A stretch of 64,000 nucleotides of DNA from an uncultured Bacillota bacterium (GTDB lineage Bacteria; Bacillota_I; Bacilli_A; RFN20; CAG-826): NCBI GenBank assembly GCA_949289845.1, contig CASEPN010000001.1:118887-182886 (forward strand), in the 5' to 3' direction. Below are positions 10,598 to 48,359 of this stretch, one piece after another. How positions within the stretch are numbered: the first letter of the stretch is position 1; each line of letters opens with the position of its first letter. A program made the position numbers and the translations under genes. A model generated the notes under the pieces. The model was not told the DNA's origin and did not search any database. It was given only the letters and a program-made list of their open reading frames with translations.

Positions 10598-12030
10598 ACA
10601 TCGCGATGATCTCTAGCGAAGCCCTTCCCTTCTCCAAGAGCGGGGGCCTCGCCGACGTCGTCTACTCCCTCTCCAAGGCCCTCAAGGGCCTCCGCCAGAA
10701 CGTGGCGATCATCGTCCCCTTCTACCAGGCGAGCCTCGCCAAGGGGATCGACGCGGAGAAGGTCGCCGAGTTCGACGTCCGCATGTCCTGGCGCGACCAG
10801 AGGACCACCCTCTACAAGGCCGTGGCGGACGGGATCCTCTACTACCTCGTCGCCAACGACTACTACTTCCGGCGCGAGCGGATGTACGGGTACATGGACG
10901 ACGGGGAGCGCTTCGCCTTCTTCGCCCTGGCCGCGAGCGAGGCCCTCCGCCACCTCGAATGGAAGCCCGACGTCGTCCACGTCCACGACTGGCAGTCGGC
11001 GATCGTCCCGACCCTCGTGAGCGAGAACTACTACAACGACGACGCCTACAAGGGGATCCGCTTCGTCCTCACCATCCATAACCCCGCCTTCAAGGGGATG
11101 CTGGACCGCTACTTCCTCACTGACTTCTTCAACCTCCCCGACCACCTCTTCGACATCGGGAAGGTGCGCTTCGAGGGGATGTTCTCCACCCTCAAGAGCG
11201 GCATCGTCTATAGCGACCTCATCACCACCGTCTCGCCCACCCATCGGGAGGAGCTCCTCACCAGGGACGGGGGGCAGGGCCTCGACGGCGTCCTCGAGTA
11301 CCGCCGGGACGACTTCGTCGGGATCCTCAACGGGATCGACTACGGCGAGTGGAACCCCGAGAAGGACACCCGCATCGCGAAGACGTACGGGAAGGAGACC
11401 CTCGAGGAGGGGAAGCACCTCAACCAGAGCGACCTCCTGAAGGCGTACGGCCTCCACTGGTACGGCGGGCCCGTCTATGGGATCGTGAGCCGCCTCACGT
11501 GGCAGAAGGGGATCGACATCCTCCTCCCGGAGGCCCGCTCCATCCTCTCCAAGGGCGGGAACTTCGTCCTCCTCGGCTCCGGGGAGTACGAGCTCGAGCA
11601 GCGCTTCGAGGAGCTCCGGAGCCAGTACCCGGACACCTGCGGCATCTACATCGGCTACAACGACGCCCTCGCTCACAAGATCTACGCCGGCTCCGACTTC
11701 TTCATGATGCCCTCCCTCTTCGAGCCTTGCGGGCTCAGCCAGATGATCAGCCAGCGCTACGGGACGCTCCCGATCGTGCGCATGACCGGAGGACTCGCGG
11801 ACACCGTCCATCCCTACGACGGCATGATCACCGGGAACGAGGACGGCCTCGCCTTCCGCGACTATAATGTCGAGGGCCTCGACTACGCCGTCTATCGCGC
11901 GGAGGAGCTGTACCGGAACCAGGAGGGCTACTACAAGGTGGCCCGCGCCGCGATGGGACGGGACCACAGCTGGCGGACCTCCGCCCGCGGGTATCTCGCC
12001 GAGTACAAGAAGCTTCTCGCGAGGAAGTAG
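10594..12030 (+). CDS. glgA: glycogen synthase GlgA (GT5)
   Basis: 'MNIAMISSEALPFSKSGGLADVV' (KxGGL motif), 'VHVHDWQSA', 'PSLFEPCGLSQM'. Confidence 0.9.
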   Translation: MNIAMISSEALPFSKSGGLADVVYSLSKALKGLRQNVAIIVPFYQASLAKGIDAEKVAEFDVRMSWRDQRTTLYKAVADGILYYLVANDYYFRRERMYGYMDDGERFAFFALAASEALRHLEWKPDVVHVHDWQSAIVPTLVSENYYNDDAYKGIRFVLTIHNPAFKGMLDRYFLTDFFNLPDHLFDIGKVRFEGMFSTLKSGIVYSDLITTVSPTHREELLTRDGGQGLDGVLEYRRDDFVGILNGIDYGEWNPEKDTRIAKTYGKETLEEGKHLNQSDLLKAYGLHWYGGPVYGIVSRLTWQKGIDILLPEARSILSKGGNFVLLGSGEYELEQRFEELRSQYPDTCGIYIGYNDALAHKIYAGSDFFMMPSLFEPCGLSQMISQRYGTLPIVRMTGGLADTVHPYDGMITGNEDGLAFRDYNVEGLDYAVYRAEELYRNQEGYYKVARAAMGRDHSWRTSARGYLAEYKKLLARK

Positions 12031-23004: not shown

Positions 23005-24309
23005 ATGATTGCGAAAGCGCGTCACATCGAGCTGCCCAACGTCCTCCTCGCCCATCAGGAACTGGAAGAGGCGCCTTTGCCAAAGTACTGCTACGTCGCA
23101 GGCACGAATGGCCGCTGCGCCTCCTATGAGCTCACGGTGAAGGAGGGGGACCATGTGAGGGTCGGGGAGCGCCTCGGCCTCCGGAAGGGACCCTTCTTCG
23201 AGCAGCCGATCGTATCCACCTGCTCCGGCACCTACCTCGGGATCGAGAAGCACCTCCACCACACGGGGAAGGAGTGCGAGTTCCTGAAGATCGAGAACGA
23301 CTTCAAGGACGAGCCGGATCCTTCCGCGAAGGAGAGGAGCGAGGAGGAGCTCAAGGCCCTGACGAAGGAGGATGTCCTCGCCATCATGCGGGACATGGCC
23401 CTCGTCGGCCTCGGCGGCTCTTCCTTCCCGAGCTACGTGAAGCTCCAGGGGGACCATCAGATCCACACCATCGTCATCAACGGGGTCGAGTGCGAGCCCT
23501 CGCTCGCGAGCGACCACCGCCTCATGCTCGAGCACCCCCACGAGATCATCGAGGGGCTCCGCCTCCTCATGAGGGCCACCGGCGCCAAGGAGGGGAAGAT
23601 CTGCGCGAAGTGGATCTACAAGGACCTCGCGGAATGCTGGTCGAGCGCCCTCGCCGGCGAGGAGGGCTCCGGCATCTCCTTCGCCCCGGTCTGGAACTTC
23701 TATCCCCAGGGATGGGAGGTCGCCTGCATCAAGACCGCGACCGGAATCGACATCCCGAGCGGCCATCTCCCTGCGGAGTTCGGGATCCTCGAGTACAACG
23801 TCGCCACCATCTACTCCCTCTACCTCGCCGCGAAGAAGAGGATGCCCCTCCTCACCCGCTACGTGCAGATCCACGGGGACGGGGTGAAGGAGCAGAAGTT
23901 CCTCAAGGCGAGGATCGGGACCCCTCTCAGGGACCTTCTCCCCCTCGCCGGAGGCTACACCGATTCCGGGAAGAAGAAGCGCATCATCATGGGCGGCCCC
24001 ATGATGGGGAACACCGTGGCAGATGACGACATCATCCTCACCCCCACCGTCACCTCCATCCTCGTGATGGACGAGGAGGTGTGGACCGCCGATAGCTGCG
24101 TCCGCTGCGGCTCCTGCGTCTACAGCTGCCCGACCCACCTCATGCCCGTCCTCATCGCCCAGGCGGTGAAGAGCGGGAACAAGGAGCGGGTCAAGGCGCT
24201 CCACCCCGAGCGCTGCGTCGAATGCGGGCTCTGCGCCTATAGCTGCACGAGCCGCATCAACGTCACCGAGTACGTAAGGAGGGCAAAGCGCATCGCGCGT
24301 CTTTCATGA
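23005..24309 (+). CDS. rnfC: Rnf electron transport complex subunit C
   Basis: 'VGLGGSSFPS' (NADH/FMN-binding region). Two 4Fe-4S motifs, 'CVRCGSCVYSCP' and 'CVECGLCAYSC'. Confidence 0.9.
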   Translation: MIAKARHIELPNVLLAHQELEEAPLPKYCYVAGTNGRCASYELTVKEGDHVRVGERLGLRKGPFFEQPIVSTCSGTYLGIEKHLHHTGKECEFLKIENDFKDEPDPSAKERSEEELKALTKEDVLAIMRDMALVGLGGSSFPSYVKLQGDHQIHTIVINGVECEPSLASDHRLMLEHPHEIIEGLRLLMRATGAKEGKICAKWIYKDLAECWSSALAGEEGSGISFAPVWNFYPQGWEVACIKTATGIDIPSGHLPAEFGILEYNVATIYSLYLAAKKRMPLLTRYVQIHGDGVKEQKFLKARIGTPLRDLLPLAGGYTDSGKKKRIIMGGPMMGNTVADDDIILTPTVTSILVMDEEVWTADSCVRCGSCVYSCPTHLMPVLIAQAVKSGNKERVKALHPERCVECGLCAYSCTSRINVTEYVRRAKRIARLS

Positions 24310-25448
24310 GCGAAGAGAACACCATGCGGCTCCTCCAGGAGCCAAGCCCGCACGTCCGGAGGAAGGACAGCGCCACGAGGATGATGCTTGACGTCCTCCT
24401 CGCCCTGCTCCCTCTCCTCATCTTCTCCTTCATCGTCTACCGCCTCGACGCCCTCAAGGTGTTCGGGATTGCGGTCCCGGCGATGATGATCGCCGAATGG
24501 GTTTTCGTCATGATCAAGGGACGGATGCCCTACGACGGGGAGAAGCATCCCTTCAAGGAGAAGTTCCTCCACGCCCTGAAGCTATACCGCCCGGTGAACG
24601 CCGTGGCCCCCGCCGTCTCTGCCCTCATCTTCGGGATGTGCCTCCCGCCCAGCACGAGCTGGTGGGGCGTCCTCGTCGGGGCGCTCGCCGGCATCATCTT
24701 CGGGAAGCTCCTCTTCGGGGGCCTCGGGCAGAACATCTTCAACCCCGCCGCCGTGGGCATGATCCTCACGCGTCTCAGCTTCTCCAACACGATGAGCTAC
24801 CCCGCCATCCCTTGGGGCGAGGGCACGATGGTCGACGTCGTCACCGGGGGCACCGTCCTTTCCGGCACAATCCAGGGCGGCTACTCCTCCCTCATGGACG
24901 TCTCCCTCCTCGACCTCTTCCTGGGCAGGACCCAGGGGGCGATGGGAGAAGTCTGCAAGGTCCTCATCCTCGTCGGGCTCCTCTATCTCCTGCTTCGCCA
25001 GGCGATCGACTGGCGGGTGACCTTCACCTATATCGGCGCCTTCACCGCCCTCATCGCCATCGCCGGCATCGCCATCGCCGGGGGCGGCATCGTCAAGGAC
25101 TTCGACATCTGGCACTTCATCGGGGTCGAGTTCCTCGCGGGAGGCATGCTCTTCGGGGCGACCTTCATGCTGACCGACCCGGTCACGATGCCGGCGACGA
25201 AGCCGGGGCGCTACATCTACGCCCTCTCCGCCGCCTCCCTCACCGTCCTCATCCGTCTCTTCGCCTCCGCTCCCGAGGGGGTCGGCTACTCGATCCTCCT
25301 CGCCAATCTCATCACGCCGGTCCTCGACCACCACAAGGTGGCCTCGTCCCGGTGGACGTGGAAGAAGTGGCTGACCATCGGCCTCATCCTCCTCGCCGAC
25401 ATCCTCTTCATCGTCATCGGAATCATCTTCGGAGGTAAAGTCAAATGA
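24306..25448 (+). CDS. rnfD: Rnf complex subunit D (NqrB/RnfD family)
   Basis: Polytopic. 'FMLTDPVTMPATKPG' carries the conserved Thr used for covalent FMN. ATGA coupling. Confidence 0.9.
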   Translation: MSEENTMRLLQEPSPHVRRKDSATRMMLDVLLALLPLLIFSFIVYRLDALKVFGIAVPAMMIAEWVFVMIKGRMPYDGEKHPFKEKFLHALKLYRPVNAVAPAVSALIFGMCLPPSTSWWGVLVGALAGIIFGKLLFGGLGQNIFNPAAVGMILTRLSFSNTMSYPAIPWGEGTMVDVVTGGTVLSGTIQGGYSSLMDVSLLDLFLGRTQGAMGEVCKVLILVGLLYLLLRQAIDWRVTFTYIGAFTALIAIAGIAIAGGGIVKDFDIWHFIGVEFLAGGMLFGATFMLTDPVTMPATKPGRYIYALSAASLTVLIRLFASAPEGVGYSILLANLITPVLDHHKVASSRWTWKKWLTIGLILLADILFIVIGIIFGGKVK

Positions 25449-28400
25449 AGATCAAGCTCGACGCAAAGCACGTTCTCTCGGTCGTCGCCGTCCTCGCCCT
25501 CATCGGCGGCGGGGCGGGCGCCCTCATCGGGACGGTGAACTACTTCACCAGCCCTGTCATCAGCGAGAATGACGACAAGAAGGAGAACGAGGCCTACTAC
25601 AAGTGCTTTCCGGACGCGGCCTCCTTCAGCGATGAGACCGAGGTCTCCAGCGGCACTTACATCGAGACGTACAAGAGCGCCCTCGACGCCTCCGGGAACG
25701 AGATCGGCAAGGTGTACCATGCGGTGGGCGCGACCGGCTTCGGCGCGAACGTCGACCTCCTGATTGGCGTCGACGCTGACGGGCTCGCCCACATCGAGAT
25801 CGTCGCCTACGGCCCGGATAACACCGGAGGCAACAACAAGACCGTAGAGGATTGGATCGACTCCATCAACGACGGGAGCGAGACGATCGACGGGGGCACC
25901 ACCACCGGGGCGACCAACACCGCCTCTGTCGTGAGGGCGATGGTCGCCGAGGCCCTCGATCTCTATGAGAACGGCGACGTGACGCCCCCGCCCGTTACCG
26001 GCGGCGAGAAGTACTACAACCTCTTCGAAGGCGGCGCCTCCGCAGGGGACAAGGTGAGCGTTGCCTCTGGAAGCCTCGACCACTACCGCGAGGTGAAGGA
26101 TGCCTCAGGGAACATCCTTGGACGCGCCTACTACGGCGGCGGGCTCAACGTCTTCGGCGTCAGCATCAACGTCATCGTCGGCGTCACCCCCGAGGGGGAG
26201 GTCACGAAGCTCTACCTCGACGCGTACTCGGGCGGCGAGCAGATGGGGACCGACACCACGATCAAGAACTGGATCGACGAGGTCAACAGCGGTGACAGGG
26301 AGTGGACCGCCGGTCCTAGCGCAGGCGCCTCCTATGAGGTTATCAAGGGCGTCATCGACGAGGCTATCGCGCACTATACCTCCGCTGCCCCTGCGCCGAC
26401 CTACGAGGAGTCCGTCTACCTCGGCCTCTTTGAGGGCGCGAGCTCTATCGGCGCCTTCCGCGAGCTGGGCGGGAACTACCTCACAGGGCGCGTGGATGTC
26501 CTGGACGCGGACGGGGAAGTCCTCGGCTACGCCTATGAGGGCGAGGGCAAGAACAGCTACAACGTCCACATTGCCCTCGTCGTCGGCGTGAAGACGGACG
26601 GGACTGTGACGAAGCTCTACCTCGGCGACTACTCTGGTGGGAACCCTGCGGGCACCGAGACGAGCGTCAATGAATGGATCGACAAGGTCAACGACGGCAC
26701 CGGCTCCATCGAGGCCGGCCCGAGCGCGACCTATTCCTACCAGGTCATCAAGGGCATCATCGACGAGGCCGTCGGCTACGCGACCGGCGCCATCGTCGAC
26801 CCGAGTGAGAACTACCTCGAGCTCTTCGAGGGGGCCTCTTCCCTTGGCGAGGAAGTCGAGCTGACCGGCGACTACGAGTACATCGCCTCCTATCGCGAGG
26901 TGAAGGGCAGCTCTGGCGCGGTGCTCGGAAGAGGCTACATCACGAACACCACGAACGTCGGGGATAGGTGGGGCAACCTCCAGCTTCTCATCGGCGTATA
27001 TCCCGACGGCACCATCTCCAAGGTCATCGCCCTTACCGACGAACAGAGCCGCCCGGACGGGACGAACGAGTACATCGAATCCGTGAATGGCGGCGGCGAC
27101 TACGAGGATATCTTCGGCTACGAGGCCTCGAGCGGAACCGTCGGAATTGAGATAACCCATGACGCGATTGCCGAGGCGATCGGGGACTACACCGGCGTGG
27201 CGAACCTCCCTGCCGAAATCACGAAGGCCATGGCGAGCATTCTTCCTGATGCCGCCGGCTGGGGCCAACCCACTGTCGTCAACGAGGGCTACATCATCGG
27301 AAGGATGCCCGTCCTTGACGAGGACGGCGTCGAGACGGGCGCTTCCTACTATCTCTCGGGCGCCGCGAGCGACGGGGAATATGATCTCGTAATCCTCGTC
27401 AAGGAGGATGGGTCCTTCACCCTTAGCCTAGTGAGCGGCGACTGGGACAGCGCCTACCTCGCCGGTGTCGAGGCGTGGATCGCCAAGATCAACGACGGGA
27501 GCGCCCACTACCGTGACGACATCAAGGACTCGGGCGTCAACCAGGCGGCTTATGCGATCGCCGCCAACATCGAGGCGGTCCTCGCCTACGAAACGGAAAC
27601 CACCGAGTCTCCCTACCTCGCCCTTTGGGACGGTTCCTATTCCGTGAGCTCCTCCCAGGCCGTCGAAGGCGGGACCTACCTCCACTCCTACCGCGAGGTG
27701 CGGGACGGCGCCGGGAAGGTCCTCGGAAGGGGCTACCTCACCAAGGTGACCTCCGTCCCGAGCAGTCGCGGGAGCTATGGGGATATCCAGGCCCTCATCG
27801 CGGTCAACAAAGACGGCACCATCAAGGAGGTGACGCTTCTTCAGAACACCCAGTCCATCCCCGGTTCCACCGACGAGTACGCCGGGTTCGTCAATGGCGG
27901 CGGGAACTACGAGGAGGTGCCTGAATATAGCGGCGGCACCATCGGCGTCGACATCCTCAAGGACATGATCGGGGAGGCGCTTACCCACTACGAGCAGAAC
28001 CCCGATCAGGTCGTCGATCCTGCCGAGCCCGTCGTTCCGACCAACATCCCCGAGGCCGTGAAGGCGCTCATCCCGGAGGCCCACTCCTGGAACGCCTTCG
28101 TTGAGCTTTCCGCCGTCTGGCAGGCGACCGGCTACTGGAGCGCCCTTGATGAAAGCGAGGCCGAGATCGGCCGCGTCTACGAGTTCAAGGCCGGGAGCAC
28201 GGGCGATGACAACCTCTACTACGTCGCTCTCGACGAAGACGCCGAGATCATCCAGCTCGAGGTCGTGAATACGACGCTCGAGGGCGAGAACCTGACCGCC
28301 CTCACCACATGGGTCGAGCAGCTGAACACGGGCAAGGCCATCCCGGAGATTCCTTCGGATAGCCCCATCGCCTCCGAGCTCGGATGGGTCGAGTCCGGGA

Positions 28401-28789
28401 TCGAGGACGCCCAGGCCGACTACCTTGGCGACGTCCCCGCCGCGGTGGAGGAGAAGGTCGCTTCCTTCGTCACGGAGAGCTTCGGCGAGAACGCCAAGTT
28501 CGACATGCCTTCCTCTGTCTCCAACGAGGACATCCCCGAGGTCACCAACCGCTATAACGTCTACGTTCCTTCGGACGATCCGACGGGCGGGACCCCGACC
28601 TACCCGGGCGACGTCTGGCTCGCCCATGTCAAGACCGATTCCTATGACGCCTACGTCCTCATCGCCGTCGGCGACCTCATCACGGACGACGTCGACACGG
28701 ATGCGGCCCGCTACCTCGTATGCTCCGAGGAGGGGACCAGGGACACGGAAGCCATCGACGCAGTCGTGGAGGCGCTCCTCGCGCTCTAG
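25445..28789 (+). CDS. rnfG: Rnf complex subunit G, hugely expanded: N-terminal TM anchor plus about 8 tandem FMN-binding-domain-like repeats (1114 aa)
   Basis: N-terminal 'VLSVVAVLALIGGGAGALIG' anchor as in RnfG. Repeat 1, 'DASGNEIGKVYHAVGATGFGANVDLLIGVDADGLAHIEIVAYGPDNTGGN..IDGGTTTGATNTASVVRAM', aligns to canonical RnfG/FMN_bind 'GYGG.I.LLVGID.DGKI.GV.IL.H.ETPGLG....DAITGATITSRAV'. Seven further units of about 130 aa have the same pattern (e.g. 'NVIVGVTPEGEVTKLYL', 'ALVVGVKTDGTVTKLYL', 'LLIGVYPDGTISKVIAL', 'ALIAVNKDGTIKEVTLL') with variant flavinylation motifs (SAGAS, SAT, SSGT, SGGT). Confidence 0.8.
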   Translation: MKIKLDAKHVLSVVAVLALIGGGAGALIGTVNYFTSPVISENDDKKENEAYYKCFPDAASFSDETEVSSGTYIETYKSALDASGNEIGKVYHAVGATGFGANVDLLIGVDADGLAHIEIVAYGPDNTGGNNKTVEDWIDSINDGSETIDGGTTTGATNTASVVRAMVAEALDLYENGDVTPPPVTGGEKYYNLFEGGASAGDKVSVASGSLDHYREVKDASGNILGRAYYGGGLNVFGVSINVIVGVTPEGEVTKLYLDAYSGGEQMGTDTTIKNWIDEVNSGDREWTAGPSAGASYEVIKGVIDEAIAHYTSAAPAPTYEESVYLGLFEGASSIGAFRELGGNYLTGRVDVLDADGEVLGYAYEGEGKNSYNVHIALVVGVKTDGTVTKLYLGDYSGGNPAGTETSVNEWIDKVNDGTGSIEAGPSATYSYQVIKGIIDEAVGYATGAIVDPSENYLELFEGASSLGEEVELTGDYEYIASYREVKGSSGAVLGRGYITNTTNVGDRWGNLQLLIGVYPDGTISKVIALTDEQSRPDGTNEYIESVNGGGDYEDIFGYEASSGTVGIEITHDAIAEAIGDYTGVANLPAEITKAMASILPDAAGWGQPTVVNEGYIIGRMPVLDEDGVETGASYYLSGAASDGEYDLVILVKEDGSFTLSLVSGDWDSAYLAGVEAWIAKINDGSAHYRDDIKDSGVNQAAYAIAANIEAVLAYETETTESPYLALWDGSYSVSSSQAVEGGTYLHSYREVRDGAGKVLGRGYLTKVTSVPSSRGSYGDIQALIAVNKDGTIKEVTLLQNTQSIPGSTDEYAGFVNGGGNYEEVPEYSGGTIGVDILKDMIGEALTHYEQNPDQVVDPAEPVVPTNIPEAVKALIPEAHSWNAFVELSAVWQATGYWSALDESEAEIGRVYEFKAGSTGDDNLYYVALDEDAEIIQLEVVNTTLEGENLTALTTWVEQLNTGKAIPEIPSDSPIASELGWVESGIEDAQADYLGDVPAAVEEKVASFVTESFGENAKFDMPSSVSNEDIPEVTNRYNVYVPSDDPTGGTPTYPGDVWLAHVKTDSYDAYVLIAVGDLITDDVDTDAARYLVCSEEGTRDTEAIDAVVEALLAL

Positions 28790-28792: not shown

Positions 28793-29518
28793 ATGGCGGA
28801 CAAGGCCATCGACATGCGGGGAGAGAGGAAGGAGGCCTTCGTCTCCGGAATCTGGAAGGCCAACCCCCTCTTCGTCTCCCTCCTGGGCTTCTGCCCGGCC
28901 CTCGCCGTCACGACCTCCTTCGAGAGCGCCTTCGGGATGGCGATCCTCTTCACCTTGGTGCTCCTGGGGTCGAACGTCTGCGTCTCGCTCCTCCGGAAGC
29001 TCATCCCGGAAGAGATCACGACGCCCTGCTACATCGTCATCATCGCCACCTTCGTCACGGTGGTGAAGATGCTCTGCGAGGCCTTCCTCCCGGAGCTATA
29101 CACCTCGCTCGGCGTCTTCCTCTCCCTCCTCGTCGTGAACTGCATCGTGCTCGGGAGGAGCGAGGCCTACGCCTCGAAGAACACGGTGCTCAACAGCACC
29201 CTCGACGCCCTCGGGAACGGCATCGGCTTCGGCTGGGCCATCTGCCTCATCGCCCTGGTGAGGGAGGTCCTCGGGACGGGGCAGCTCACCTTCGGGAAGG
29301 TGTTCACCTTCATCCCGGAGTACTCGCTCCCGCTCCTGAAGGTCGACGGGGTCTACGACCTCTCCATCGAGTTCTTCCAGCGTTCGATCGGGGGCTTCCT
29401 CGTGCTGGGGATCGCCCTTGCTATCATCGCCGCGATCGACATCCATAAGAAGGACAAGGCGAGGGTGGACGCCCTCCTCGCCAAGAAGAGGGCCGCGGCC
29501 CAGGAAGGAGCGAACTAG
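28793..29518 (+). CDS. rnfE: Rnf complex subunit E
   Basis: NqrD/RnfE family: 'NPLFVSLLGFCPALAVTTS', 'LGNGIGFG'. Confidence 0.9.
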   Translation: MADKAIDMRGERKEAFVSGIWKANPLFVSLLGFCPALAVTTSFESAFGMAILFTLVLLGSNVCVSLLRKLIPEEITTPCYIVIIATFVTVVKMLCEAFLPELYTSLGVFLSLLVVNCIVLGRSEAYASKNTVLNSTLDALGNGIGFGWAICLIALVREVLGTGQLTFGKVFTFIPEYSLPLLKVDGVYDLSIEFFQRSIGGFLVLGIALAIIAAIDIHKKDKARVDALLAKKRAAAQEGAN

Positions 29519-29521
29519 CCC

Positions 29522-30106
29522 ATGGAATACATCGTCGCCTTCCTCCTCGCCGTATTGACGAGCTCCCTCATCGACAATGTCGTCCTCGCCCGCTTCTACG
29601 GGATCTGCAGCTTCCTCGGGACCGGGAACAAGGTCAAGCCGGCCTTTTCGATGGGGCTTGCGGTGACCTTCGTCATCGTGCTGGCGAGCCTCGTCTGCTG
29701 GCCCCTTTATAACTACGTCCTCGTCCCGGCGAAGATGGAGTTCCTCGACACCATCGTCTACATCCTCGTCATCGCCTCCCTCGTGCAGCTGGTCGGGATC
29801 TTCGTCAAGAAGACCTCGCCCGCCCTCTACAAGGGACTGGGGATCTACCTCCCCCTCATCACCACCAACTGCGCGGTCCTCGGGGTCGCCCAGGGGAACA
29901 CCGACCAGGGGCTCGACTTCCTGAGCTCGATGGGGAACGCGATCGGGACCTCGCTCGGCTACCTCCTCGTGATCGTCCTCTTCGCCCTCATCCGCGAGAG
30001 GCTGGAGAGCGCCGAGACCCCCCGCGCCCTCAAGGGCATCCCCATCGCGATGGTGACCGCCGCCCTCATGGCGCTCGCCTTCATGGGGCTCCAGGGCATC
30101 GCCTAG
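29522..30106 (+). CDS. rnfA: Rnf complex subunit A
   Basis: NqrE/RnfA family: 'NVVLARFYGICSFLG', 'ITTNCAVLGVA'. Confidence 0.9.
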   Translation: MEYIVAFLLAVLTSSLIDNVVLARFYGICSFLGTGNKVKPAFSMGLAVTFVIVLASLVCWPLYNYVLVPAKMEFLDTIVYILVIASLVQLVGIFVKKTSPALYKGLGIYLPLITTNCAVLGVAQGNTDQGLDFLSSMGNAIGTSLGYLLVIVLFALIRERLESAETPRALKGIPIAMVTAALMALAFMGLQGIA

Positions 30107-30322
30107 ATGGACGAGGCCACGGCCAGGGGCCTGGCGATCGCCCTCGTCGTCCTCCTCGCCCTCCTCTTCCTCGGGAGCTTCGTCTGGTACATGAGGACGA
30201 AGCCTCCCAAGGGATGCGAGAGGGTGCGGAAGGACGAGACGGACTGCATCGGCTGCAAGAACGCCGGCTGCCGGCTCTACCGGCCCAAGGAAAATCCCCC
30301 CGAAGAGGGGAAGAAGGAGTGA
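30107..30322 (+). CDS. mini RnfB-like protein: TM anchor plus partial Fe-S (RnfB N-domain-like) motif
   Basis: 'GCERVRKDETDCIGCKNAGC' has 4 Cys with the C-x2-C-x4-C spacing of the RnfB N-terminal Fe-S domain. 71 aa. Confidence 0.45.
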   Translation: MDEATARGLAIALVVLLALLFLGSFVWYMRTKPPKGCERVRKDETDCIGCKNAGCRLYRPKENPPEEGKKE

Positions 30323-30325
30323 GAC

Positions 30326-30673
30326 ATGGACATGAGCCTGCTGGACATGGCCTTCGACAACGGGATGGCGATCCTTTATAGCTTCCTGGTGCTTCTCGCC
30401 CTCGGGGCGATCTTCGCCTTCCTCCTCTGTCTCTTCAGCGTCGTCTTCAAGGTGAAGGAGGACAAGAGGGTAGGGGTGGTGAGGAAGCTCCTCCCCGGGA
30501 TCGACTGCGGGGCATGCGGGAACGCGGGCTGCCAGGAGATGGCGGAGAAGCTCGTCTCGGGCGAAGTCAAGGACCCCGCCCTCTGCCGCCCGGGGAAGAA
30601 GGAGAAGAACTTCGACCCCATCCTCGCCTATCTCAAGGAACACCCCGAGCCCATATACGAGGACGAGGAGTGA
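30326..30673 (+). CDS. rnfB: RnfB N-terminal Fe-S domain protein (truncated RnfB lacking ferredoxin domains)
   Basis: 'LLPGIDCGACGNAGCQEMAEKLVSGEVKDPALCRPGKKE' aligns closely to E. coli RnfB '[38 protein letters not shown]'. An N-terminal TM helix is present and no C-terminal 2x[4Fe-4S] ferredoxin domain is present. Confidence 0.65.
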   Translation: MDMSLLDMAFDNGMAILYSFLVLLALGAIFAFLLCLFSVVFKVKEDKRVGVVRKLLPGIDCGACGNAGCQEMAEKLVSGEVKDPALCRPGKKEKNFDPILAYLKEHPEPIYEDEE

Positions 30674-30763
30674 GCAAGAGGCCTTCCGGAAGGGAGGCCT
30701 TTTCCTTCGCCTTTTCCTCCCTATTCCCGCCCTCCGTTGAGAAACAGACGGGGAGAAACTAGA

Positions 30764-31873
30764 ATGCGCCCCATGAAGAAATGGCTTCCTTTCCTTTTCT
30801 TGCCCCTGCTCCTTGCTTCCTGCGGTTCTCCTGAGGGAGCCTCGGGATCCTTGTCCGGGGACGAGGCTTCGTCCGGGAACGGGGCGACGATCGTCCCGAG
30901 CGGGGACTTCGAGCTCGTCCGCTACCAGGACTTCCTTTCCTTCGGCGCCTATAGCGACCTCCGCTTCTACCAAAGGGAAGGGGAGGATCATGTCGCCCTT
31001 TTCGAAAGCCTCGTGGAGGTATTCGAGCTTCTTTCCCATTACATGGAGACGGACCTTCCCTATGCGGATGTCTCGGGGAAGACGACCGCGAAGACCTTGA
31101 GCGAGGAAGAGGGGGCCTTTCCTCTCGACGAGACGATGGCGGGACTCCTTTCCTTCGCGATCGACGCCCGTTCGATCACCGGAGGCTCGATCGACATCCT
31201 TTCCGGCGGGCTCAACGACCTCTGGAAGGATTCCTATTTGCTGAACAAGGAGGACCCCGTCCTCCCGAGCCAAGCGGACATCTCCCGCGAAATCGCGAGG
31301 ATATCCTCCTCCTCGCTTTCCCTCGCCAAGGATTGGGACGGCTCCTATGAGGTCGAGAAGACAGGAAACGCCCTCCTCGACTTCGGCTCGATGGGGAAGG
31401 GCTACGCGGTGGCGCGCCTCGGGGAGGCGCTCCGCGAGGAAGGGATCGGCTATTTCCTTCTGAACGCCGGGACGAGCTCGATCCTCATCGGGCAGAACCC
31501 CAACAGCGAGGACGGGACCTTCAAGATCGGCTTCTCCGACATCGAAGGAGTCACCTTCCAGGCGAAGGACGTGGCGATCGGCACCTCGAGCGTGACGAAC
31601 CAGCACCGCGTGGACGAGGCCACCGGAACCCTCTATAGCCACGTGATCGACCCCAAGACAGGGAGCGCGGTGCCTTCCCTGACCACCGCGATCGTGATCG
31701 GGGAGGACGCCGGGATGTGCGACGTCTTCTCGACATGGCTCCTCATGAAAGGGGAGGAGGCCGATGTCGGGCTCATCGAAAGCATGGGCTACTCGGTCCT
31801 TCTTTACGACTACCGGAGGGCGACTCCCTTCGTCCACCTGAGCGAGTCCTTCCCCCCGCTGGAAGGGAAGTAG
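30764..31873 (+). CDS. apbE: FAD:protein FMN transferase ApbE, lipoprotein (extracytosolic)
   Basis: Signal peptide with lipobox 'LLLASCGS'. ApbE signature 'DFGSMGKGYAVARLGEAL' and a 'DPKTG' region. Confidence 0.85.
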   Translation: MRPMKKWLPFLFLPLLLASCGSPEGASGSLSGDEASSGNGATIVPSGDFELVRYQDFLSFGAYSDLRFYQREGEDHVALFESLVEVFELLSHYMETDLPYADVSGKTTAKTLSEEEGAFPLDETMAGLLSFAIDARSITGGSIDILSGGLNDLWKDSYLLNKEDPVLPSQADISREIARISSSSLSLAKDWDGSYEVEKTGNALLDFGSMGKGYAVARLGEALREEGIGYFLLNAGTSSILIGQNPNSEDGTFKIGFSDIEGVTFQAKDVAIGTSSVTNQHRVDEATGTLYSHVIDPKTGSAVPSLTTAIVIGEDAGMCDVFSTWLLMKGEEADVGLIESMGYSVLLYDYRRATPFVHLSESFPPLEGK

Positions 31874-32341
31874 ATGGCCTTCCGGGAGAATGTCCGCCGC
31901 CACCTTGGGGACATCCTCCTTTTCCTCGTCCTCTTCCTCGGGCTTCTCGTCGGGACGATCCTCGCCTTCCTCCTCCCGGGCGAGAAGGCCTCTGAGGCCC
32001 TCTTCTACCGGGACGACGCCCTCCTCCTCCGGATCGATCTCGTCCATCCCGAGAAGTCCGTTCCCTACGAGGACACGGAGAAGATCGAAGATCCCTCCTC
32101 CTACGGGGAAGAGGTCATCCTCGCCTACATCATCCAGGGGGAAATGACCCCGATGACCGTCGCCCTTTCCGCGGAAGGGGTTGCCGTCCTCGAGTCGGGG
32201 TGCCCCTCACAGTACTGCGTCGGCCTCGGCTACACGATGGACGTGAGGCGTCCGATCGTCTGCGCCTATAACCACGTCCACGTCGAGTACCAAGGAGCGG
32301 CCGCGGAGGATTCCTCTTCCGGGCCGGACATCATCCTATGA
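31874..32341 (+). CDS. small membrane-anchored protein, possibly NusG-domain-II-like (flavinylation-cluster associated)
   Basis: N-terminal TM 'ILLFLVLFLGLLVGTILAFLL' plus a roughly 110-aa soluble beta-rich domain. Family assignment is from recollection of ApbE-associated clusters and was not verified. Overlaps the next gene (ATGA). Confidence 0.35.
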   Translation: MAFRENVRRHLGDILLFLVLFLGLLVGTILAFLLPGEKASEALFYRDDALLLRIDLVHPEKSVPYEDTEKIEDPSSYGEEVILAYIIQGEMTPMTVALSAEGVAVLESGCPSQYCVGLGYTMDVRRPIVCAYNHVHVEYQGAAAEDSSSGPDIIL

Positions 32342-32862
32342 GAGGCACGGTAAGGAGGATGGCGGCCGACGCGGCGATGCTCGCCCTCGCCCTCGCCCTT
32401 TCGATCGCCGAGAGCTTCATCCCCATATCCGCGGTCCCGGGCTTCAAGCCGGGGCTCGCGAACATCGTGATCCTCCTCCTCATATACCAGTTCTCGTGGA
32501 AGGAGGCGCTCATCGTCGACCTCGGGAGGATTTTCCTCGCCTCCCTCATGACAGGGAGGATCCTCAGCTTCCCCTTCTACATGTCCCTTGCCGGAGGGGT
32601 CCTTTCCTATCTCGGGATGGTCCTGGTGAAGTCCCTCCTTTCGAAGGTATTCACCATATACGGGGCCTCCCTCCTCGGGGCCTTCCTCCATTCCCTGGGC
32701 CAGATCCTAGTCGCGATCCCCCTTCTGGGCACTTCCGCGGTCCTTTGGTACTTCCCCCTCATGGGCCTCACGAGCCTTCTCACGGGCCTAGCGACGGGCT
32801 TCCTCGCGGACAGGATCATCAAGACGAGGGTGTTCGAGTTCCTGAGGATCACGGGAAGATAG
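32338..32862 (+). CDS. Gx-transporter-family membrane protein (PF07456, mis-named 'heptaprenyl diphosphate synthase component I'-like)
   Basis: 'AMLALALALSIAESFIPISAVPGFKPGLANIVILLLIY' resembles the conserved N-terminus of this family. 4-5 TM, 174 aa. Confidence 0.45.
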   Translation: MRGTVRRMAADAAMLALALALSIAESFIPISAVPGFKPGLANIVILLLIYQFSWKEALIVDLGRIFLASLMTGRILSFPFYMSLAGGVLSYLGMVLVKSLLSKVFTIYGASLLGAFLHSLGQILVAIPLLGTSAVLWYFPLMGLTSLLTGLATGFLADRIIKTRVFEFLRITGR

Positions 32863-32899: not shown

Positions 32900-33904
32900 G
32901 TGAACCCCATGACCGGAGGGAGGACGAAGAGCGCCTTCCTTATCGCTTCCCCTTCCGCAGTCCTTTTGCTCTGGCTTTTCGAACTATTGATCAGCGGGAC
33001 TTCCTACGACGCGATGATCGCCCTTCTTTCCATTGGGCTCGGCATCCTCTTCTCCCTGTTCCTTGCCTGGCTCTCCCTGAGGGGCGGGGGTTGGAGGAGG
33101 GCCTCCTCCTTCCTTCCCCTTCTTGTCTTCGTCTTTGAGGCGGCGACCCTCATCGCCCTCCTCCTTGAGGCGGGATTCTCCTATGGGGCGAGGATCGACG
33201 GAGGCTTCTTCCTCGTCGGGAAGGGAATCCGCCTCGTCGGGACAGGGCAGGCCGTCCCTTACCCCGGTGGCGAGGAATGGATGTACGGGATGGACCTATA
33301 TTCCTATCCCTTCCGGTTCGACGTCCCCGTCGCCTTCCTCATCCTTCTCGTCCTCCTCGTTTTTTATAGGAAGAAAGCGAAGGGATGGCTCCTCCGCTTC
33401 CTGAGGATGGACGGGGAGGGGCTCCTGGCGCTCGTGCTCATCCTTCCCTTCGCCCTCGTCTCCATGTCCCGCCTCCTCGGGGCCTTCTATCTCCCCGCGG
33501 AGGGATATCTCCGGGTCCTCTTCCTGGGGTTCCTCCTGGAGGCCCTCCTCTTCTTCCTTGCCCTTTGGAGGGGACAGGCGACGCCATCCCTCATCGCCCT
33601 CGCCCTCGCCCTCGCCTTCCTCGAGGAACATATGAGGCAGGGGTCATCCATCCCTTCTTCCCAGGACGCCTTATTCCTACTACATGGCTTTGGATCCCTT
33701 CAGGGGGAGTGGTATCGCTACGTCGGCACGGGAGAGGTTCCCTTCTCCCTCTTCGCCGATTCCTGGGTCCTGGAGTCCTCGAAGAACATGGGGATCCTCT
33801 CCTGGGAGCTCCTATGGACGCCTGCTGCCGCCCTTCTTTCCTTGCCCCTCCTCCTTTTCTACCCGGAAGAAAGGAAGCGTTTCCTTCTTCCTCAACGTTT
33901 CTAA
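32900..33904 (+). CDS. hypothetical polytopic membrane protein
   Basis: Multiple TM helices. No recognisable motif. Confidence 0.35.
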   Translation: MNPMTGGRTKSAFLIASPSAVLLLWLFELLISGTSYDAMIALLSIGLGILFSLFLAWLSLRGGGWRRASSFLPLLVFVFEAATLIALLLEAGFSYGARIDGGFFLVGKGIRLVGTGQAVPYPGGEEWMYGMDLYSYPFRFDVPVAFLILLVLLVFYRKKAKGWLLRFLRMDGEGLLALVLILPFALVSMSRLLGAFYLPAEGYLRVLFLGFLLEALLFFLALWRGQATPSLIALALALAFLEEHMRQGSSIPSSQDALFLLHGFGSLQGEWYRYVGTGEVPFSLFADSWVLESSKNMGILSWELLWTPAAALLSLPLLLFYPEERKRFLLPQRF

Positions 33905-36490: not shown

Positions 36491-38026
36491 ATGAGAAAAG
36501 CATGGTCCCTCCTCCTTCCTCTTCTCGCCCTTTCCTCCTGCGTCCCCGAAGGGACGACGGGGGATTCTTCCTCGACGAAGGAGGAGCCTTCCTCTAGTTC
36601 CTCGGAAGAGATCGAGGGGGGTTTCTGGATCGAAGGCCCTTCCTTGCTCGACATCGGGGAACGGGGGCGCTACGAGCTCATGGGGGACGTCCCCGAGGGC
36701 GAGATCCATTGGGAAGTCGAGGGCGAGAGCCTCGTCGAGCCCTATGAGTACCCCAACCCCCTCTACTACGGCCTCACGGGGCTATATGAGGGAGAGGTCG
36801 TCCTCAAGGCGATGTTAGGGGACAAGGTCCTCTTCCCTTTCGAGATCGAGGTGAAGGACGTCGACTCGGGCTTCCTCGTGGACGCGGGGACCGGGAAGCT
36901 CGCGCTCGGAGGGAAGATGGAGCTTTCCTTCTCGCTTGATGGGGAGCCCCTTCCTGCGAAGGAACTCTCCTCCGTCTCGATCACGACGCTTTCCTCGCCT
37001 TCGGGGAAGGGGCTCGTCTCCTCCTATGAGGACGAAGGCCTCTTCCTACTCGGGGAGGAGCTCGGGAGCTTCCGCGCGGTCGCTTCCTACGAGGGCCTTC
37101 TCTCCAACCCCTTCGAGATCGAGGTGATTCCTTCCGTCGAGGGGAAGACGTACCTCCTGGAGGTGCTTCTTGAAGACGGGACGCCCGCGGAAGAGAACAC
37201 CATCCCGACCTCTTCCACGGTCACCTTCGTCCTCCGGGACGAGGAAGGGGAGGACTATCCCTTCCAGTGGGGCGTGGAGCTCCTCGAAGGGGACTCCTGG
37301 GTCCTCCAGGAGACAGAGGATCCCCATGTCTACGAGACCTACATCTGGTCCGAGGAGAGGCTCCTAATCGCTCCTGCCTTCCCCGGGGAAGCGCCCGCGC
37401 TCGCGGCGGAGGCCCTCGAACTATACGTGATGCACGAAGGGGACACCCCTCTTCTGGACTTCCATCTCGAGGATGAGGCTGGGAACGAGGTCGAGACGCT
37501 CTTCGTCAGCCCTGACGGGAGCACGAGGCTCCATATCGTCCCGGAGCGAGAGACGGACTACCTCGGCACCGCGAACGTCCACTGCGAGGACGAGAGGCTC
37601 AACCCCGGCCAGGAATGGGGCGAGGAGGGAGGGCGCTACCTCATCTTCGCCCCCGAGGAGGGAGGGAGCTACTCCCTTCTCGTCAGGTTCACGTTCGTGA
37701 AGAAGGAGTTCCCGGTCCACGTTATGCCGGAGGAGGCCGCCCTCGAGCTTGAGATCATGGGGACGGGCACGATGGACGGGGAGAAGTACTACGTCGGACA
37801 TACGGGCTCGATCACGGGAGGGTTCCCTTGGGAGGGGCCCATCTACTGCGACCTCGTCGACTACGACGTCGAGTACGTCTTCCTTGAGGGCGAGGACCTC
37901 GTCCGCATCGGGGAGGGACGGGACATTCATTTCCTTTCCCCTGGCACGGTGAGCCTATATGCGCAGATCAGGAACACCGAGGTCAAGAGCAACACCTTCG
38001 CCTTCGAGATCGAGCCCGAGGAATAG
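36491..38026 (+). CDS. acidic secreted lipoprotein, hypothetical (Ig-like repeats likely)
   Basis: 'LLLPLLALSSCVPEG' lipobox. Glu-rich, beta-rich repeats. Confidence 0.5.
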   Translation: MRKAWSLLLPLLALSSCVPEGTTGDSSSTKEEPSSSSSEEIEGGFWIEGPSLLDIGERGRYELMGDVPEGEIHWEVEGESLVEPYEYPNPLYYGLTGLYEGEVVLKAMLGDKVLFPFEIEVKDVDSGFLVDAGTGKLALGGKMELSFSLDGEPLPAKELSSVSITTLSSPSGKGLVSSYEDEGLFLLGEELGSFRAVASYEGLLSNPFEIEVIPSVEGKTYLLEVLLEDGTPAEENTIPTSSTVTFVLRDEEGEDYPFQWGVELLEGDSWVLQETEDPHVYETYIWSEERLLIAPAFPGEAPALAAEALELYVMHEGDTPLLDFHLEDEAGNEVETLFVSPDGSTRLHIVPERETDYLGTANVHCEDERLNPGQEWGEEGGRYLIFAPEEGGSYSLLVRFTFVKKEFPVHVMPEEAALELEIMGTGTMDGEKYYVGHTGSITGGFPWEGPIYCDLVDYDVEYVFLEGEDLVRIGEGRDIHFLSPGTVSLYAQIRNTEVKSNTFAFEIEPEE

Positions 38027-38070
38027 CGTTCCTGGAAACGATGAAGGGAACATCCGCGTAATACCAACAT

Positions 38071-40326
38071 ATGAGAAGACCGTTCCTTGCCCTTTTCCTA
38101 TCTCTCTTCCTTCTTGCCTCCTGCGAGGAGCAGGGGGATCCCCTCGTGCCCCCCGAGCCCGCGGACGAGTTCTCCTTCGTCACCGAGGGCGGCGTCCTCG
38201 ACATCGGGGAGACAAGGGAGATCTTCTTTTTTCCCCGGAACGGGGCGAAGCCTACCTTCGAGATCGAGGGAAAGGGGGCGAGGATCCTCGACGTCGGGGA
38301 GGACTCCCTCCTCGTCCAGGGGATTGCGGAAGGGGGCTTCCTCCTGGAGGAGGCGAATAGCGGCGTCTCCCTTTCCCTATCGGTCGAGGACTTGTGGAGC
38401 GGATACTACCTCGAGGCGGACGCCATCTCCCTCATGGAAGGGGAGCGGGCCTCCCTCGCCCTCCATGGCCCCGGGGACGAGCTCCTTCCCTTGGAAGAGG
38501 GCATGCTCCGCCTTCTCCCCGGGAGCGCAGAGGCCTCCTTCCCCCTGGACGAGTTCGGGACCCCATCCCTCCAGGCGGACGGGACCGGGGAGATCCTCCT
38601 TTTCGCCGAGATGGAGGACGGGTCCGTCACGGACGTCCTTTCGATAAAAAGCACCATGTTCCTTGAGCCTCTCTATCTTTCCCTTGAAGGAGGGAACGGC
38701 GACTTCCGCCCCGGGGAGAAAAGGGAGCTCTCCCTCATGGACCGCTGGGGCGATCCTTATGAAGGGGACTGGGAGCCGACCATCAGGAACCTCGACATGT
38801 TTTCCACGCCTTTCGCCTTGGAAGGAAAGGAAATATCCGCGCTTTCCTCTGGGGAATGCGAGGTTTCCGCGAAAGTTGAGGAGGATGGATACGAAGTCCA
38901 GCCCCTCCGTCTCCTCTCCGCGGAGGAAGGGGAGAAGCGCCCCTACGAGCTCCGCCTCGTGAACGCCTATAACGAAAGCGACTGGGACGAGGACGGGCTC
39001 TGGATGAACCTCCAGGACGGGTATGGCTACGGCTTCTCTCTCTGGACGGACGTGGACGGCCCCAAGGGCTCGATCCAGGTCGAGTGTCTCGCCGGGGATC
39101 CCGAGGCCGTCCTTTTCGAAGTGGAAGAGGACTTCGGCTCCGGGCATATGGCCGATTGCTCCGTCCGTCCCATCAAGGAAGGCTCGGCGACCTACCGCGT
39201 GCGGATCGGGAGCCTATATAGCGAGGAGTACACCTTCCATGCGCTTCCTGGATGGAACTCCCGTCCTTCCCTTTCCCTGGAGGACGATGAGATCCCGGTG
39301 GGAGGGAAGACGAGGCTCCTCCCTTCCGTGGAAGGATCGGAAGGCGAGTACCTCTTCGACTATGTGGTCGTGGACGGGGAAGGGACCGCGAAGCTTCTCG
39401 AGGGCGGGGTCCTCGCCGGGGAGCGGGTCGGCTCGATGACCATCCAGGTGCGCCTCAGGGGAGAGCGCGGGCTTTGGGGCGAGTCGGTCGTCCTCGACGT
39501 AACGGAGGAAGGGAGCGGCGACCCCTACGTCGGGATGAGCCCGGAGGAGTTCTACCGGGACTACGAGCAGGCGGAGACGCTCCTGGACAGCTACTACCGC
39601 ACGAGGCACGGCTTCCTCTCGGGCTCGCTCGAGGTCCCGGGCCAGTACGCGGAGCTTTCCGAGGACCGCCCCATGGAGGACGGGCTATACGTCAAGAACA
39701 CATCCCTTTCCTTCTCCGAGGGCGGGTCCGCCTATACGGTGAGGGATAGCCAGGGGAACGAGTCGTTCACCATCTTCGAGGGCGGGGGCTACATCACCCT
39801 CGAGGAGGTCGCCGCCTATCTCTTCGCCTTCGGGGACGTCCCTGCCAACTATTGGGAGGACCGCTACGACTACCCTTCCCCTTCCTCAAGCGAGTGGGGC
39901 GAGTACCTCAGGCTCAACAACTCCTACTTCTCCGGGGACCAGGAGAGCTACCCTTACGAGCCCGCCCTTCCGGATATCTCCGGGATCGAAGGCGGGAGGA
40001 GCGACTACTATGAGGTCGACGTCGGGACGACGGGGACCTATACGGGTCCCTCCTTTCCCGTGAGGCCCTATAACGACGGCTACTCGATCACCCGCGGAGG
40101 GGCGAGGCTCGTCTACATGCGCTATACGGACGGGGAGGAAAGCCAGGCTCCCGCCCGGAAGGTGTTCTACACCTGGAACCACTACAACGACTTCCGCGAG
40201 TACCTGAACTACGAAGGGGGCTGGGGCGAGGCCTTCGGGAACGTGACCGCGGGGGGCGAGGTCGACGTCGTCGCCCCGGGAGGGCCGTCCCCTTACGTTC
40301 CAGTGGCGGAGAAGGGTCTTTTCTAA
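38071..40326 (+). CDS. secreted lipoprotein with C-terminal barnase/RNase-Sa-family ribonuclease domain
   Basis: Lipobox 'LLASCEEQ'. The C-terminal segment 'YYEVDVG..RGGARLVYMRYTDG..VFYTWNHYNDF' aligns to barnase 'TWREADINY..GFRNSDRILYSSD..IYKTTDHYQTF' with catalytic Glu, Arg, Arg and His conserved. The preceding 'ITLEEVAAYLFAFGDVPANYWEDR' matches barnase 'VADYLQTYHKLPDNYITKSE'. Confidence 0.6.
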   Translation: MRRPFLALFLSLFLLASCEEQGDPLVPPEPADEFSFVTEGGVLDIGETREIFFFPRNGAKPTFEIEGKGARILDVGEDSLLVQGIAEGGFLLEEANSGVSLSLSVEDLWSGYYLEADAISLMEGERASLALHGPGDELLPLEEGMLRLLPGSAEASFPLDEFGTPSLQADGTGEILLFAEMEDGSVTDVLSIKSTMFLEPLYLSLEGGNGDFRPGEKRELSLMDRWGDPYEGDWEPTIRNLDMFSTPFALEGKEISALSSGECEVSAKVEEDGYEVQPLRLLSAEEGEKRPYELRLVNAYNESDWDEDGLWMNLQDGYGYGFSLWTDVDGPKGSIQVECLAGDPEAVLFEVEEDFGSGHMADCSVRPIKEGSATYRVRIGSLYSEEYTFHALPGWNSRPSLSLEDDEIPVGGKTRLLPSVEGSEGEYLFDYVVVDGEGTAKLLEGGVLAGERVGSMTIQVRLRGERGLWGESVVLDVTEEGSGDPYVGMSPEEFYRDYEQAETLLDSYYRTRHGFLSGSLEVPGQYAELSEDRPMEDGLYVKNTSLSFSEGGSAYTVRDSQGNESFTIFEGGGYITLEEVAAYLFAFGDVPANYWEDRYDYPSPSSSEWGEYLRLNNSYFSGDQESYPYEPALPDISGIEGGRSDYYEVDVGTTGTYTGPSFPVRPYNDGYSITRGGARLVYMRYTDGEESQAPARKVFYTWNHYNDFREYLNYEGGWGEAFGNVTAGGEVDVVAPGGPSPYVPVAEKGLF

Positions 40327-48301: not shown

Positions 48302-48359
48302 GAAGGGCGCATGAAGAAAGGCGGGGCCAGTTTATAAGCCCCGCCTTTTCTTTCCTTGC

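Follow-up and report, generated by a model that had tools for sequence, protein, structure and literature searches.

How many flavins can one subunit of the Rnf complex carry, and what might a chain of them do? The question is raised by a 64,000-nucleotide (nt) stretch of DNA from an uncultured Bacillota bacterium (contig CASEPN010000001.1 of assembly GCA_949289845.1; the whole stretch is referred to here as the window). At the rnfG position of its rnf operon lies an uninterrupted open reading frame (ORF) of 1114 amino acids (aa) encoding eight domains, whereas canonical RnfG and NqrC (Rnf 7ZC6, 9ERI and 8AHX; NQR 7XK3 and 4XHF) have ~175-210 aa and one domain. A preliminary description, made from the DNA letters, took the protein for an extracytosolic RnfG enlarged by tandem flavin mononucleotide (FMN)-binding domains, and for a conduit of eight flavins. 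Topology, operon place and internal homology uphold the first part of this proposal. The second part is not supported, since a conserved acceptor threonine is found in three units (R1, R4 and R6) only. We think it probable that the protein forms a flexible outward arm with three or four flavins on RnfG, and that this arm serves as an electron side branch.

Identity and architecture of the expanded RnfG

The ORF (25445-28789, forward strand) begins with ATG and has a ribosome binding site, GGAGG, 9 nt upstream; its ATG overlaps the stop codon of rnfD, to which it is translationally coupled. Pfam matches place rnfC and rnfD upstream and rnfE and rnfA downstream, as had been described. The protein has a sole strongly hydrophobic stretch (~10-32, with the hydropathy maximum at aa 10-28), and residues 15-126, transmembrane region included, align to RnfG chains of known structure (7zc6_G, E 2e-4, and 9eri_G), in agreement with the RnfG-like anchor of the preliminary description. 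The NCBIfam model for RnfG, TIGR01947, matches residues 16-119 (E 8e-8) over model positions 3-115 only, and scores 32.5 bits versus a curated cutoff of 102, which marks a divergent RnfG below the family threshold. The first unit is matched by Foldseek to 9eri_G and 7zc6_G across their full length (probability 1.00). From its sequence, then, the product is an RnfG with one N-terminal membrane anchor, extracytosolic by topology. The protein is very acidic (181 D/E versus 54 K/R), and no sorting, wall-binding or adhesin domain was found in it with Pfam or NCBIfam. Its parts are as follows.

25445..28789, + strand: expanded rnfG, 1114 aa; membrane anchor and eight RnfG-type units
25445..25561, + strand: N-terminal anchor, aa 1-39; K-rich start, then hydrophobic helix ~10-32
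25562..25999, + strand: R1, aa 40-185; the RnfG domain proper, with TGAT (TIGR01947, Foldseek)
26000..26398, + strand: R2, aa 186-318; class B, "SAGAS"
26399..26794, + strand: R3, aa 319-450; class B, "PSAT"
26795..27208, + strand: R4, aa 451-588; class C, "SSGT"
27209..27598, + strand: R5, aa 589-718; class D, "SGVN"
27599..28030, + strand: R6, aa 719-862; class C, "SGGT"; alone above the Pfam FMN_bind threshold
28031..28429, + strand: R7, aa 863-995; class E, "SPIAS"; degenerate, RnfG fold kept
28430..28786, + strand: R8, aa 996-1114; C-terminal domain with an invariant GGT loop

The repeats emerged when 140-aa fragments were searched by BLASTP against the masked rest of the protein; a BLAST of the whole protein against itself returned the identity match only. 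The fragments gave matches at a ~135-aa period, with E values of 1e-5 to 1e-35, which define R1 to R7. R2 and R3 are 52% identical and R4 and R6 40%, with the remaining pairs at 23-40%; R5 is homologous to R1 (E 9e-8 to 3e-10). By sequence, R8 did not match the other units significantly (hhalign gave a probability of 0.2% or aligned shared boundary residues only). Its predicted topology, helix-four strands-helix, is that of the other units, except that the middle helix is absent, as is the canonical site loop. The eight ~130-aa repeats first described are thus seven statistically supported repeats and a C-terminal domain that counts as a unit by predicted topology only.

The claim that all eight units are FMN_bind domains holds for the fold and not for the Pfam model. 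A whole-protein scan with FMN_bind (PF04205) finds one stretch, in R6. Scanned singly, R6 scores 23.9 bits (cutoff 22) and R1 18.6, below the cutoff, and R2, R3, R4, R5, R7 and R8 have no match. A profile built from the units finds canonical ~175-aa single-unit RnfGs end to end, which indicates that each unit corresponds to the whole extracytosolic domain of RnfG, beyond the 77-position Pfam core. Given that the Pfam model sees one or two of the units, pipelines that count Pfam domains will under-call RnfGs of this kind.

AlphaFold2 models the full-length protein as eight helix-β4-helix-loop-helix units, with a predicted local confidence (pLDDT) mostly of 70-90. In a separate model of R7 and R8, the most degenerate region, the pLDDT is 83.5 and the predicted template modelling score (pTM) 0.55. 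Fold comparison scored 11.5 with RnfG 7zc6_G (2.8 Å over 121 residues), 9.8 with RnfG 8ahx_G, 8.1 with the putative RnfG 3dcz, 8.0 with domain 1 of CbFMN4 and 7.5-7.6 with NqrC, and Foldseek agrees. The comparison thus favours RnfG and NqrC; an alternative such as an immunoglobulin (Ig) fold was not encountered. The predicted fold is kept in units that have lost the acceptor residue. The pTM of the full-length model is 0.30, so neither rigid nor compact packing of the units is predicted, and the model provides no stack of flavins of the wire-like sort that had been suggested.

Candidate flavinylation sites

The flavin transferase ApbE uses the motif D-x-x-[S/T]-G-A-[S/T] (PMC12052999). In mutagenesis experiments, replacing the threonine by alanine abolished flavinylation, and changes at the G or A positions kept ~50% of it (PMC12052999). 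The acceptor column was mapped across 48 units from the window RnfG and six homologs; the window units were further aligned to 11 canonical RnfGs, and the units of 21 family members to the unit profile. All of the motifs quoted in the preliminary description are present: DGGTTTGATNTAS (T157), SAGAS (R2), SAT (T429), SSGT (T565) and SGGT (T832). As flavin sites, the variant motifs of R4 and R6 stand, their threonines being conserved; those of R2, with glycine, and R3, with a threonine that is not conserved, are doubtful.

In R1, the TGAT of DGGTTTGATNTAS aligns with the canonical GAT, and its acceptor T157 (nt 25913-25915) is conserved in all orthologs. Equally conserved are the acceptors of R4 (T565, nt 27137-27139) and R6 (T832, nt 27938-27940), and both units are likely to be flavinylated. 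The site that receives covalent FMN in the RnfD of the window is itself a GGT variant (D-V-V-T-G-G-T, aa 177-183), from which it follows that the cognate ApbE should accept the G-G-T variant of R4 and R6. R2 has G294 in the acceptor column, which varies (G, M, V, T, S) among orthologous class B units. Its Ser296 lies two residues beyond that column, at a position where class B keeps Ser or Thr, and R2 is probably flavin-free, or ambiguous. R3 places T429 in the column, where the close ortholog P0002 has alanine, and is possibly a weak candidate site. R5 has N699, where orthologs have Asn or Glu, and would not be expected to carry a covalent flavin. R7 has A976 and no acceptor, and R8 has no canonical site in this column. 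The site loops are the most diverged part of R2, R5 and R7.

R8 has a candidate site of a different kind. A strict scan of every ORF in the window for D-x-x-[S/T]-G-[A/G]-[S/T] gave two matches only, the RnfD site and D-D-P-T-G-G-T in R8 (aa 1044-1050; T1050 at nt 28592-28594). The surrounding loop, D-P-x-G-G-T-P-T-Y-P-G (28580-28603, aa 1044-1053), is modelled by AlphaFold2 as an exposed, low-confidence hairpin. Orthologs as distant as ~41% identity all keep the core of this loop, GGTPTYPG, unchanged. The loop may serve as a distal flavin site of a non-canonical kind, or it may bind a partner.

By alignment, three sites are well supported and one or two are doubtful, and three units have no canonical site. 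In R1, R4 and R6 an [S/T]GA[S/T]-like motif with a Ser/Thr acceptor is conserved in orthologs, which bears out the expectation of more than one plausible flavinylation site. For this RnfG family, counts of domains overstate the number of flavins.

Selection and mosaicism

Comparison of the window with two close relatives (L002 and L001) gave ratios of nonsynonymous to synonymous substitution (dN/dS) of 0.17-0.35 in every orthologous unit, including R5, R7 and R8, indicating that all units are held by purifying selection. The gene nevertheless evolves quickly: dN per unit is 0.03-0.51 in rnfG versus 0.002-0.025 in rnfC, rnfD, rnfE and rnfA, and synonymous divergence (dS) in rnfG exceeds that of the flanking genes several-fold. 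Genomes whose RnfDs are 95-99% identical differ in the units they have, entire units having been exchanged, gained or lost. L001 has a 99% identical RnfD, and in place of R2 and R3 it has units only ~50% identical to them, one with a full TGAT; R8 is missing in L001, P0003 and P0004, and R6 in L002. The gene is a mosaic hot spot within a nearly invariant operon (25445-28789 in the window, 11140-14187 in L001 and 11140-14070 in L002).

Units of this type also occur outside the operon. In a sister strain (L014), a free-standing lipoprotein, P0030, is 47% identical to R6 and has an IGGT site. The L014 sequence is 96% identical at the nt level to positions 48354-55573 of the window and continues into P0030 and a second multi-unit gene (L014 7546-9044). 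Both genes are absent from the window at that position; there the window has a stretch of lower GC content (0.53-0.56) that contains genes for AAA_14/DUF4143 ATPases (55.7-57.0 kb and 61.0-62.4 kb) and looks like a strain-variable island.

Because the sequence is metagenome-derived and repetitive at the protein level, the number of repeats might be wrong, or the ORF might be a pseudogene that is not expressed as a single protein. We give this explanation next to no weight. At the DNA level the units are 60-81% identical over at most 68 nt. A protein of the same length (P0001, 1114 aa), with eight units and 98% identity, is on record, its longest contig being 61.5 kb, and 6-8-unit orthologs exist in four species-representative genomes with GC contents from 0.38 to 0.64. 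Together these findings exclude repeat collapse or expansion during assembly, the artefact against which the preliminary description had advised a check. The uninterrupted frame, the ribosome binding site, the coupling to rnfD and a dN/dS of at most 0.35 argue against a pseudogene.

The rnf operon

The genes around rnfG are listed below.

23005..24309, + strand: rnfC, 434 aa, NADH-side subunit (Complex1_51K E 2.7e-34, RnfC_N, SLBB, Fer4)
24306..25448, + strand: rnfD, 380 aa (Pfam NQR2_RnfD_RnfE, PF03116, E 4e-76)
28793..29518, + strand: rnfE, 241 aa (Pfam Rnf-Nqr, PF02508, E 2e-56)
29522..30106, + strand: rnfA, 194 aa (Pfam Rnf-Nqr, PF02508, E 6e-56)
30107..30322, + strand: 71-aa ORF with a membrane helix and C-x10-C-x2-C-x4-C
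30326..30673, + strand: mini-rnfB, 115 aa; membrane helix and PF04060 iron-sulfur (Fe-S) domain, E 1.9e-10
30737..31873, + strand: apbE flavin transferase, a lipoprotein (Pfam ApbE E 2e-34; lipobox LLLASC↓GS)
31874-32341, + strand: NusG_II-domain protein (Pfam)
32338-32862, + strand: PF07456 membrane protein (Pfam)

The ApbE lipoprotein had been described correctly, and it is encoded in the rnf operon. To call the operon otherwise canonical was mistaken, since its RnfB is a 115-aa stub devoid of ferredoxin-type domains and is preceded by the 71-aa Cys-rich ORF. RnfB models are 190-293 positions long, and the stub aligns with no more than their first ~80. It has no Fer4 match in Pfam for ferredoxin-type 4Fe-4S domains, and is the sole RnfB-like gene; it recurs in all related operons examined. 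An Rnf variant of this kind raises the question of where ferredoxin docks or couples. The 71-aa ORF has no significant Pfam or NCBIfam match and is kept in position in L001, L003, L004, L006 and L008-L013; it is possibly an extra Fe-S mini-subunit. The two trailing genes (NusG_II and PF07456) are syntenic in L001, L003, L004 and L006-L012. On the opposite strand, an ORF of 983 aa (29096-32047, - strand) runs from rnfE to apbE; its translation is rich in Asp, Glu, Arg, Gly and Pro, and it was rejected as a gene, being a shadow ORF typical of high-GC DNA.

Relatives and the size range of the family

A scan of species-representative genomes with RnfD yielded nine loci (L001-L009) from metagenome-assembled genomes of uncultured Firmicutes/Bacilli. 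The operon is complete in L001, L003, L004 and L006-L009; L002 and L005 end inside it. The order rnfC-rnfD-G-rnfE-rnfA is the same in 13 related loci. Close relatives (L001-L004) have RnfD 73-99% identical to that of the window and RnfGs of 976-1118 aa with 6-8 units. In distant relatives (L006-L009), RnfD is ~44% identical and RnfG has 473-496 aa and about three units, with GAT in the first unit and again in the last (ANAT in L008). Distant RnfD loci are labelled Enteromonas, Erysipelotrichaceae (a rumen RUG bin) and Bacillales UBA1624. L003 and L004 have the same operon with 73-74% identical RnfD at a GC content of 0.38-0.40, versus 0.62-0.64 in the window, a very large difference for a single lineage.

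The preliminary description had proposed a comparison of rnfG lengths. When 1.84 billion representative proteins were searched exhaustively with a profile, 375 relatives were found. The smallest are single-unit RnfGs, many have 2-4 units, and the giants, at 1353-1988 aa, have 8-12 units that match the profile. By its sequence, the window RnfG is thus a mid-sized member of its family. In other lineages, canonical GAT units lie near the membrane and degenerate ones in mid-chain, and the last unit is often canonical; in P0011, P0023 and P0008 most of the added units keep the canonical GAT. The operon of the 1988-aa RnfG (GCA_020025015.1) is identical, including the 71-aa ORF and the 115-aa Fe-S stub. 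A 969-aa, 8-unit relative has a shorter version of the operon with the same stub RnfB, and two single-unit RnfG relatives have the same operon type, again with the stub. The idea that the stub RnfB co-evolved with the RnfG expansion was rejected because single-unit operons carry it as well, which makes it a clade trait independent of the expansion.

Proposed mechanism and alternatives

The arm that we favour could work as follows. In this uncultured high-GC lineage of Bacilli, probably of the herbivore gut, tandem duplication and the shuffling of units would have turned the one extracytosolic domain of RnfG into eight on a single anchor. R1, through T157, would keep the ordinary role of RnfG, as the relay for electrons between the RnfA/E centre and the flavin of RnfD, and R2-R8 would stick outward as an acidic, flexible arm. 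The lipoprotein ApbE would reach this arm and place FMN most likely onto R4 (T565) and R6 (T832), with T429 of R3 and the invariant GGT loop in R8 as possible further targets. R2, R5 and R7, with no acceptor, may be conserved spacer or docking modules. Along the resulting side branch, electrons of the RnfG flavin would leave to, or arrive from, extracytosolic partners, and transfer would occur by collision of tethered flavin domains instead of along a rigid wire.

Several observations weigh against this model. The flavins on the protein are predicted from motifs, and the SSGT and SGGT motifs of R4 and R6 depart from the consensus [S/T]GA[S/T]; the site loop of R4 is also modelled by AlphaFold2 with low confidence. 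Flavin-free units of about the size of an RnfG lie between those predicted to bear flavin. In a static chain, this spacing would put the flavins far beyond tunnelling distance, so that domain motion or non-covalent flavins would be needed. A single-unit RnfG works in the same operon of relatives, which would make the arm an accessory. Finally, no partner flavoprotein, cytochrome, acceptor enzyme or second flavinylation substrate was found in the window.

The conduit first proposed, with covalent FMN on all eight units and electrons crossing the envelope as along a multihaem cytochrome, would make use of the eight tandem RnfG-fold units and of the ApbE in the operon, and the nanowire analogy has been published (PMC8238504). 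We consider it very unlikely. R5 (Asn), R7 (Ala) and R8 offer no Ser or Thr in the acceptor column, R2 has Gly and the Thr of R3 is not conserved, and loss of the threonine is what abolished flavinylation in the mutagenesis study (PMC12052999). Pfam FMN_bind sees R6 and, weakly, R1. A nanowire requires cofactors in a fixed array, about 14 Å or less apart; a pTM of 0.30 gives no confident geometry for such an array, and rigid packing is not predicted. The separation of flavin-bearing units by flavin-free ones, together with the lack of rigid packing, makes a static wire unlikely; that both kinds of unit are interspersed and selected speaks against a simple wire and for a tethered arm or docking. 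The distance between R1, R4 and R6 would be resolved if the degenerate units bound free flavin non-covalently, either as a store near the pump and ApbE or as a shuttle between the covalent sites. The acceptor-less units do keep the RnfG/FMN_bind fold, and flavinylated domains can arise from non-covalent flavin binders (PMC11334425). The site loops of R2, R5 and R7 are, however, the parts that have diverged most, with no sign of a preserved flavin pocket, and we regard flavin capture as improbable, if somewhat less so than the eight-flavin conduit.

A more substantial challenge is that R2-R8 form a mainly non-redox surface structure, a hypervariable structural, adhesive or shielding stalk in which any flavins are incidental and which might act as a spacer, offer other proteins a place to dock or serve to decoy phage or host factors. 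The mosaic, fast evolution of rnfG inside a nearly invariant operon, the exchange of whole units among genomes with almost the same RnfD, the purifying selection on the half of the units that have no flavin site, the extreme acidity and the relatives that manage with one unit would all be accommodated. On the other side are the acceptor threonines of R4 and R6, conserved in all orthologs, and the canonical GAT that most added units retain elsewhere (P0011, P0023 and P0008), and the Pfam and NCBIfam searches found no adhesin, cell-wall-binding or sorting domain. We judge this account to be unlikely, and less so than flavin capture. Comparable odds attach to a bolder version of the redox arm, in which the operon type is a dedicated machine linking cytoplasmic NADH or ferredoxin with extracytosolic acceptors, or serving electron uptake. 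Such a machine could combine the stub RnfB, the 71-aa Cys-rich subunit, ApbE and the hypervariable multi-unit RnfG, the last as a flexible tethered arm on which flavin-bearing units could alternate with docking units that are conserved and free of flavin. In this lineage the arm would end in the invariant GGTPTYPG loop, which may be a non-canonical distal flavin or a partner-binding site, and cassette-like unit swapping, along with free-standing paralogs in sister strains, would tune the specificity for partners. Should electrons indeed flow along the arm, Rnf would directly join fermentative ferredoxin/NADH pools to extracellular redox chemistry in what are abundant uncultured gut Bacilli.

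Relation to known systems

To our knowledge, no multi-domain RnfG has been studied experimentally. The gene is nonetheless less unusual than the preliminary description held, given the relatives with up to 12 units and 1988 aa and given that multi-flavinylated RnfGs were already reported by Méheust et al. in 2021 (eLife, PMC8238504). In that article, these RnfGs occur in RNF clusters and a second, branching electron path, leading to extracytosolic acceptors, is proposed for them; like the window RnfG, they have more than one FMN-binding domain and belong to an rnf operon with ApbE, with enrichment in Gram-positive bacteria. The account is a survey statement without anatomy, whereas here about half of the units have no acceptor, the operon has a stub RnfB and a 71-aa Cys-rich ORF, and rnfG is mosaic. 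RFN20, Enteromonas and UBA1624 are not mentioned in the supplementary text of the same article that was searched. The window RnfG is a divergent example of these multi-flavinylated RnfGs.

Outside Rnf, Tong et al. (2023, PMC10339131) showed that multi-FMN proteins of three and four domains are flavinylated at every GAT site. The domains of these proteins, SaFMN3 and CbFMN4 (PDB 8P2A and 8P2B), have ~85 aa, are >80% identical, all contain GAT and are connected by flexible Gly/Ser-rich linkers (PMC10339131). In contrast, the window units have ~130 aa, are 23-52% identical, fall into at least five classes and are joined helix-to-helix, and several of them have no site. A 2024 follow-up modelled multi-flavinylated proteins mostly as beads on a string (PMC11334425), and, although such proteins are widespread, a 2025 review still describes their role as enigmatic (PMC12052999). 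In Méheust et al. 2021 and in the 2023 and 2024 papers, an RnfG with mixed flavin-bearing and flavin-free units, the mosaicism and the stub RnfB are not described.

Two other systems offer parallels for an outward arm. The Rnf of Methanosarcina acetivorans has in its operon MmcA (Holmes et al. 2019, PMC6703419), which, like the arm in concept, is an extra multi-cofactor extracytosolic module and gives the pump a branch towards extracellular acceptors; it is archaeal, uses haem c and is a separate subunit, whereas in the window FMN-type domains are fused to RnfG. The Gram-positive lipoprotein PplA (2018, as cited in PMC8238504) is extracytosolic, carries two FMN_bind domains flavinylated by an ApbE (FmnB) and directs electrons outward. 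Class C units share 47% identity with the free-standing lipoprotein P0030. PplA receives its electrons from Ndh2, demethylmenaquinone and EetAB, whereas the window arm is tied to Rnf, and no Ndh2 or Eet genes were found in the window.

Other features of the window

Downstream of the operon, neither Pfam nor NCBIfam matches three ORFs of 511, 751 and 334 aa (36491-40326 and 32900-33904), of which the one of 334 aa is conserved only partly in L001. Positions 2147-3776 encode a PP2C phosphatase and a 292-aa Ser/Thr kinase, whose Pfam match is to the kinase domain only. A glycogen synthesis cluster at 8340-12030 adjoins leuS and comprises two NTP_transferase/GlmU-like genes (glgC/glgD-like) and a starch-synthase-type glgA.

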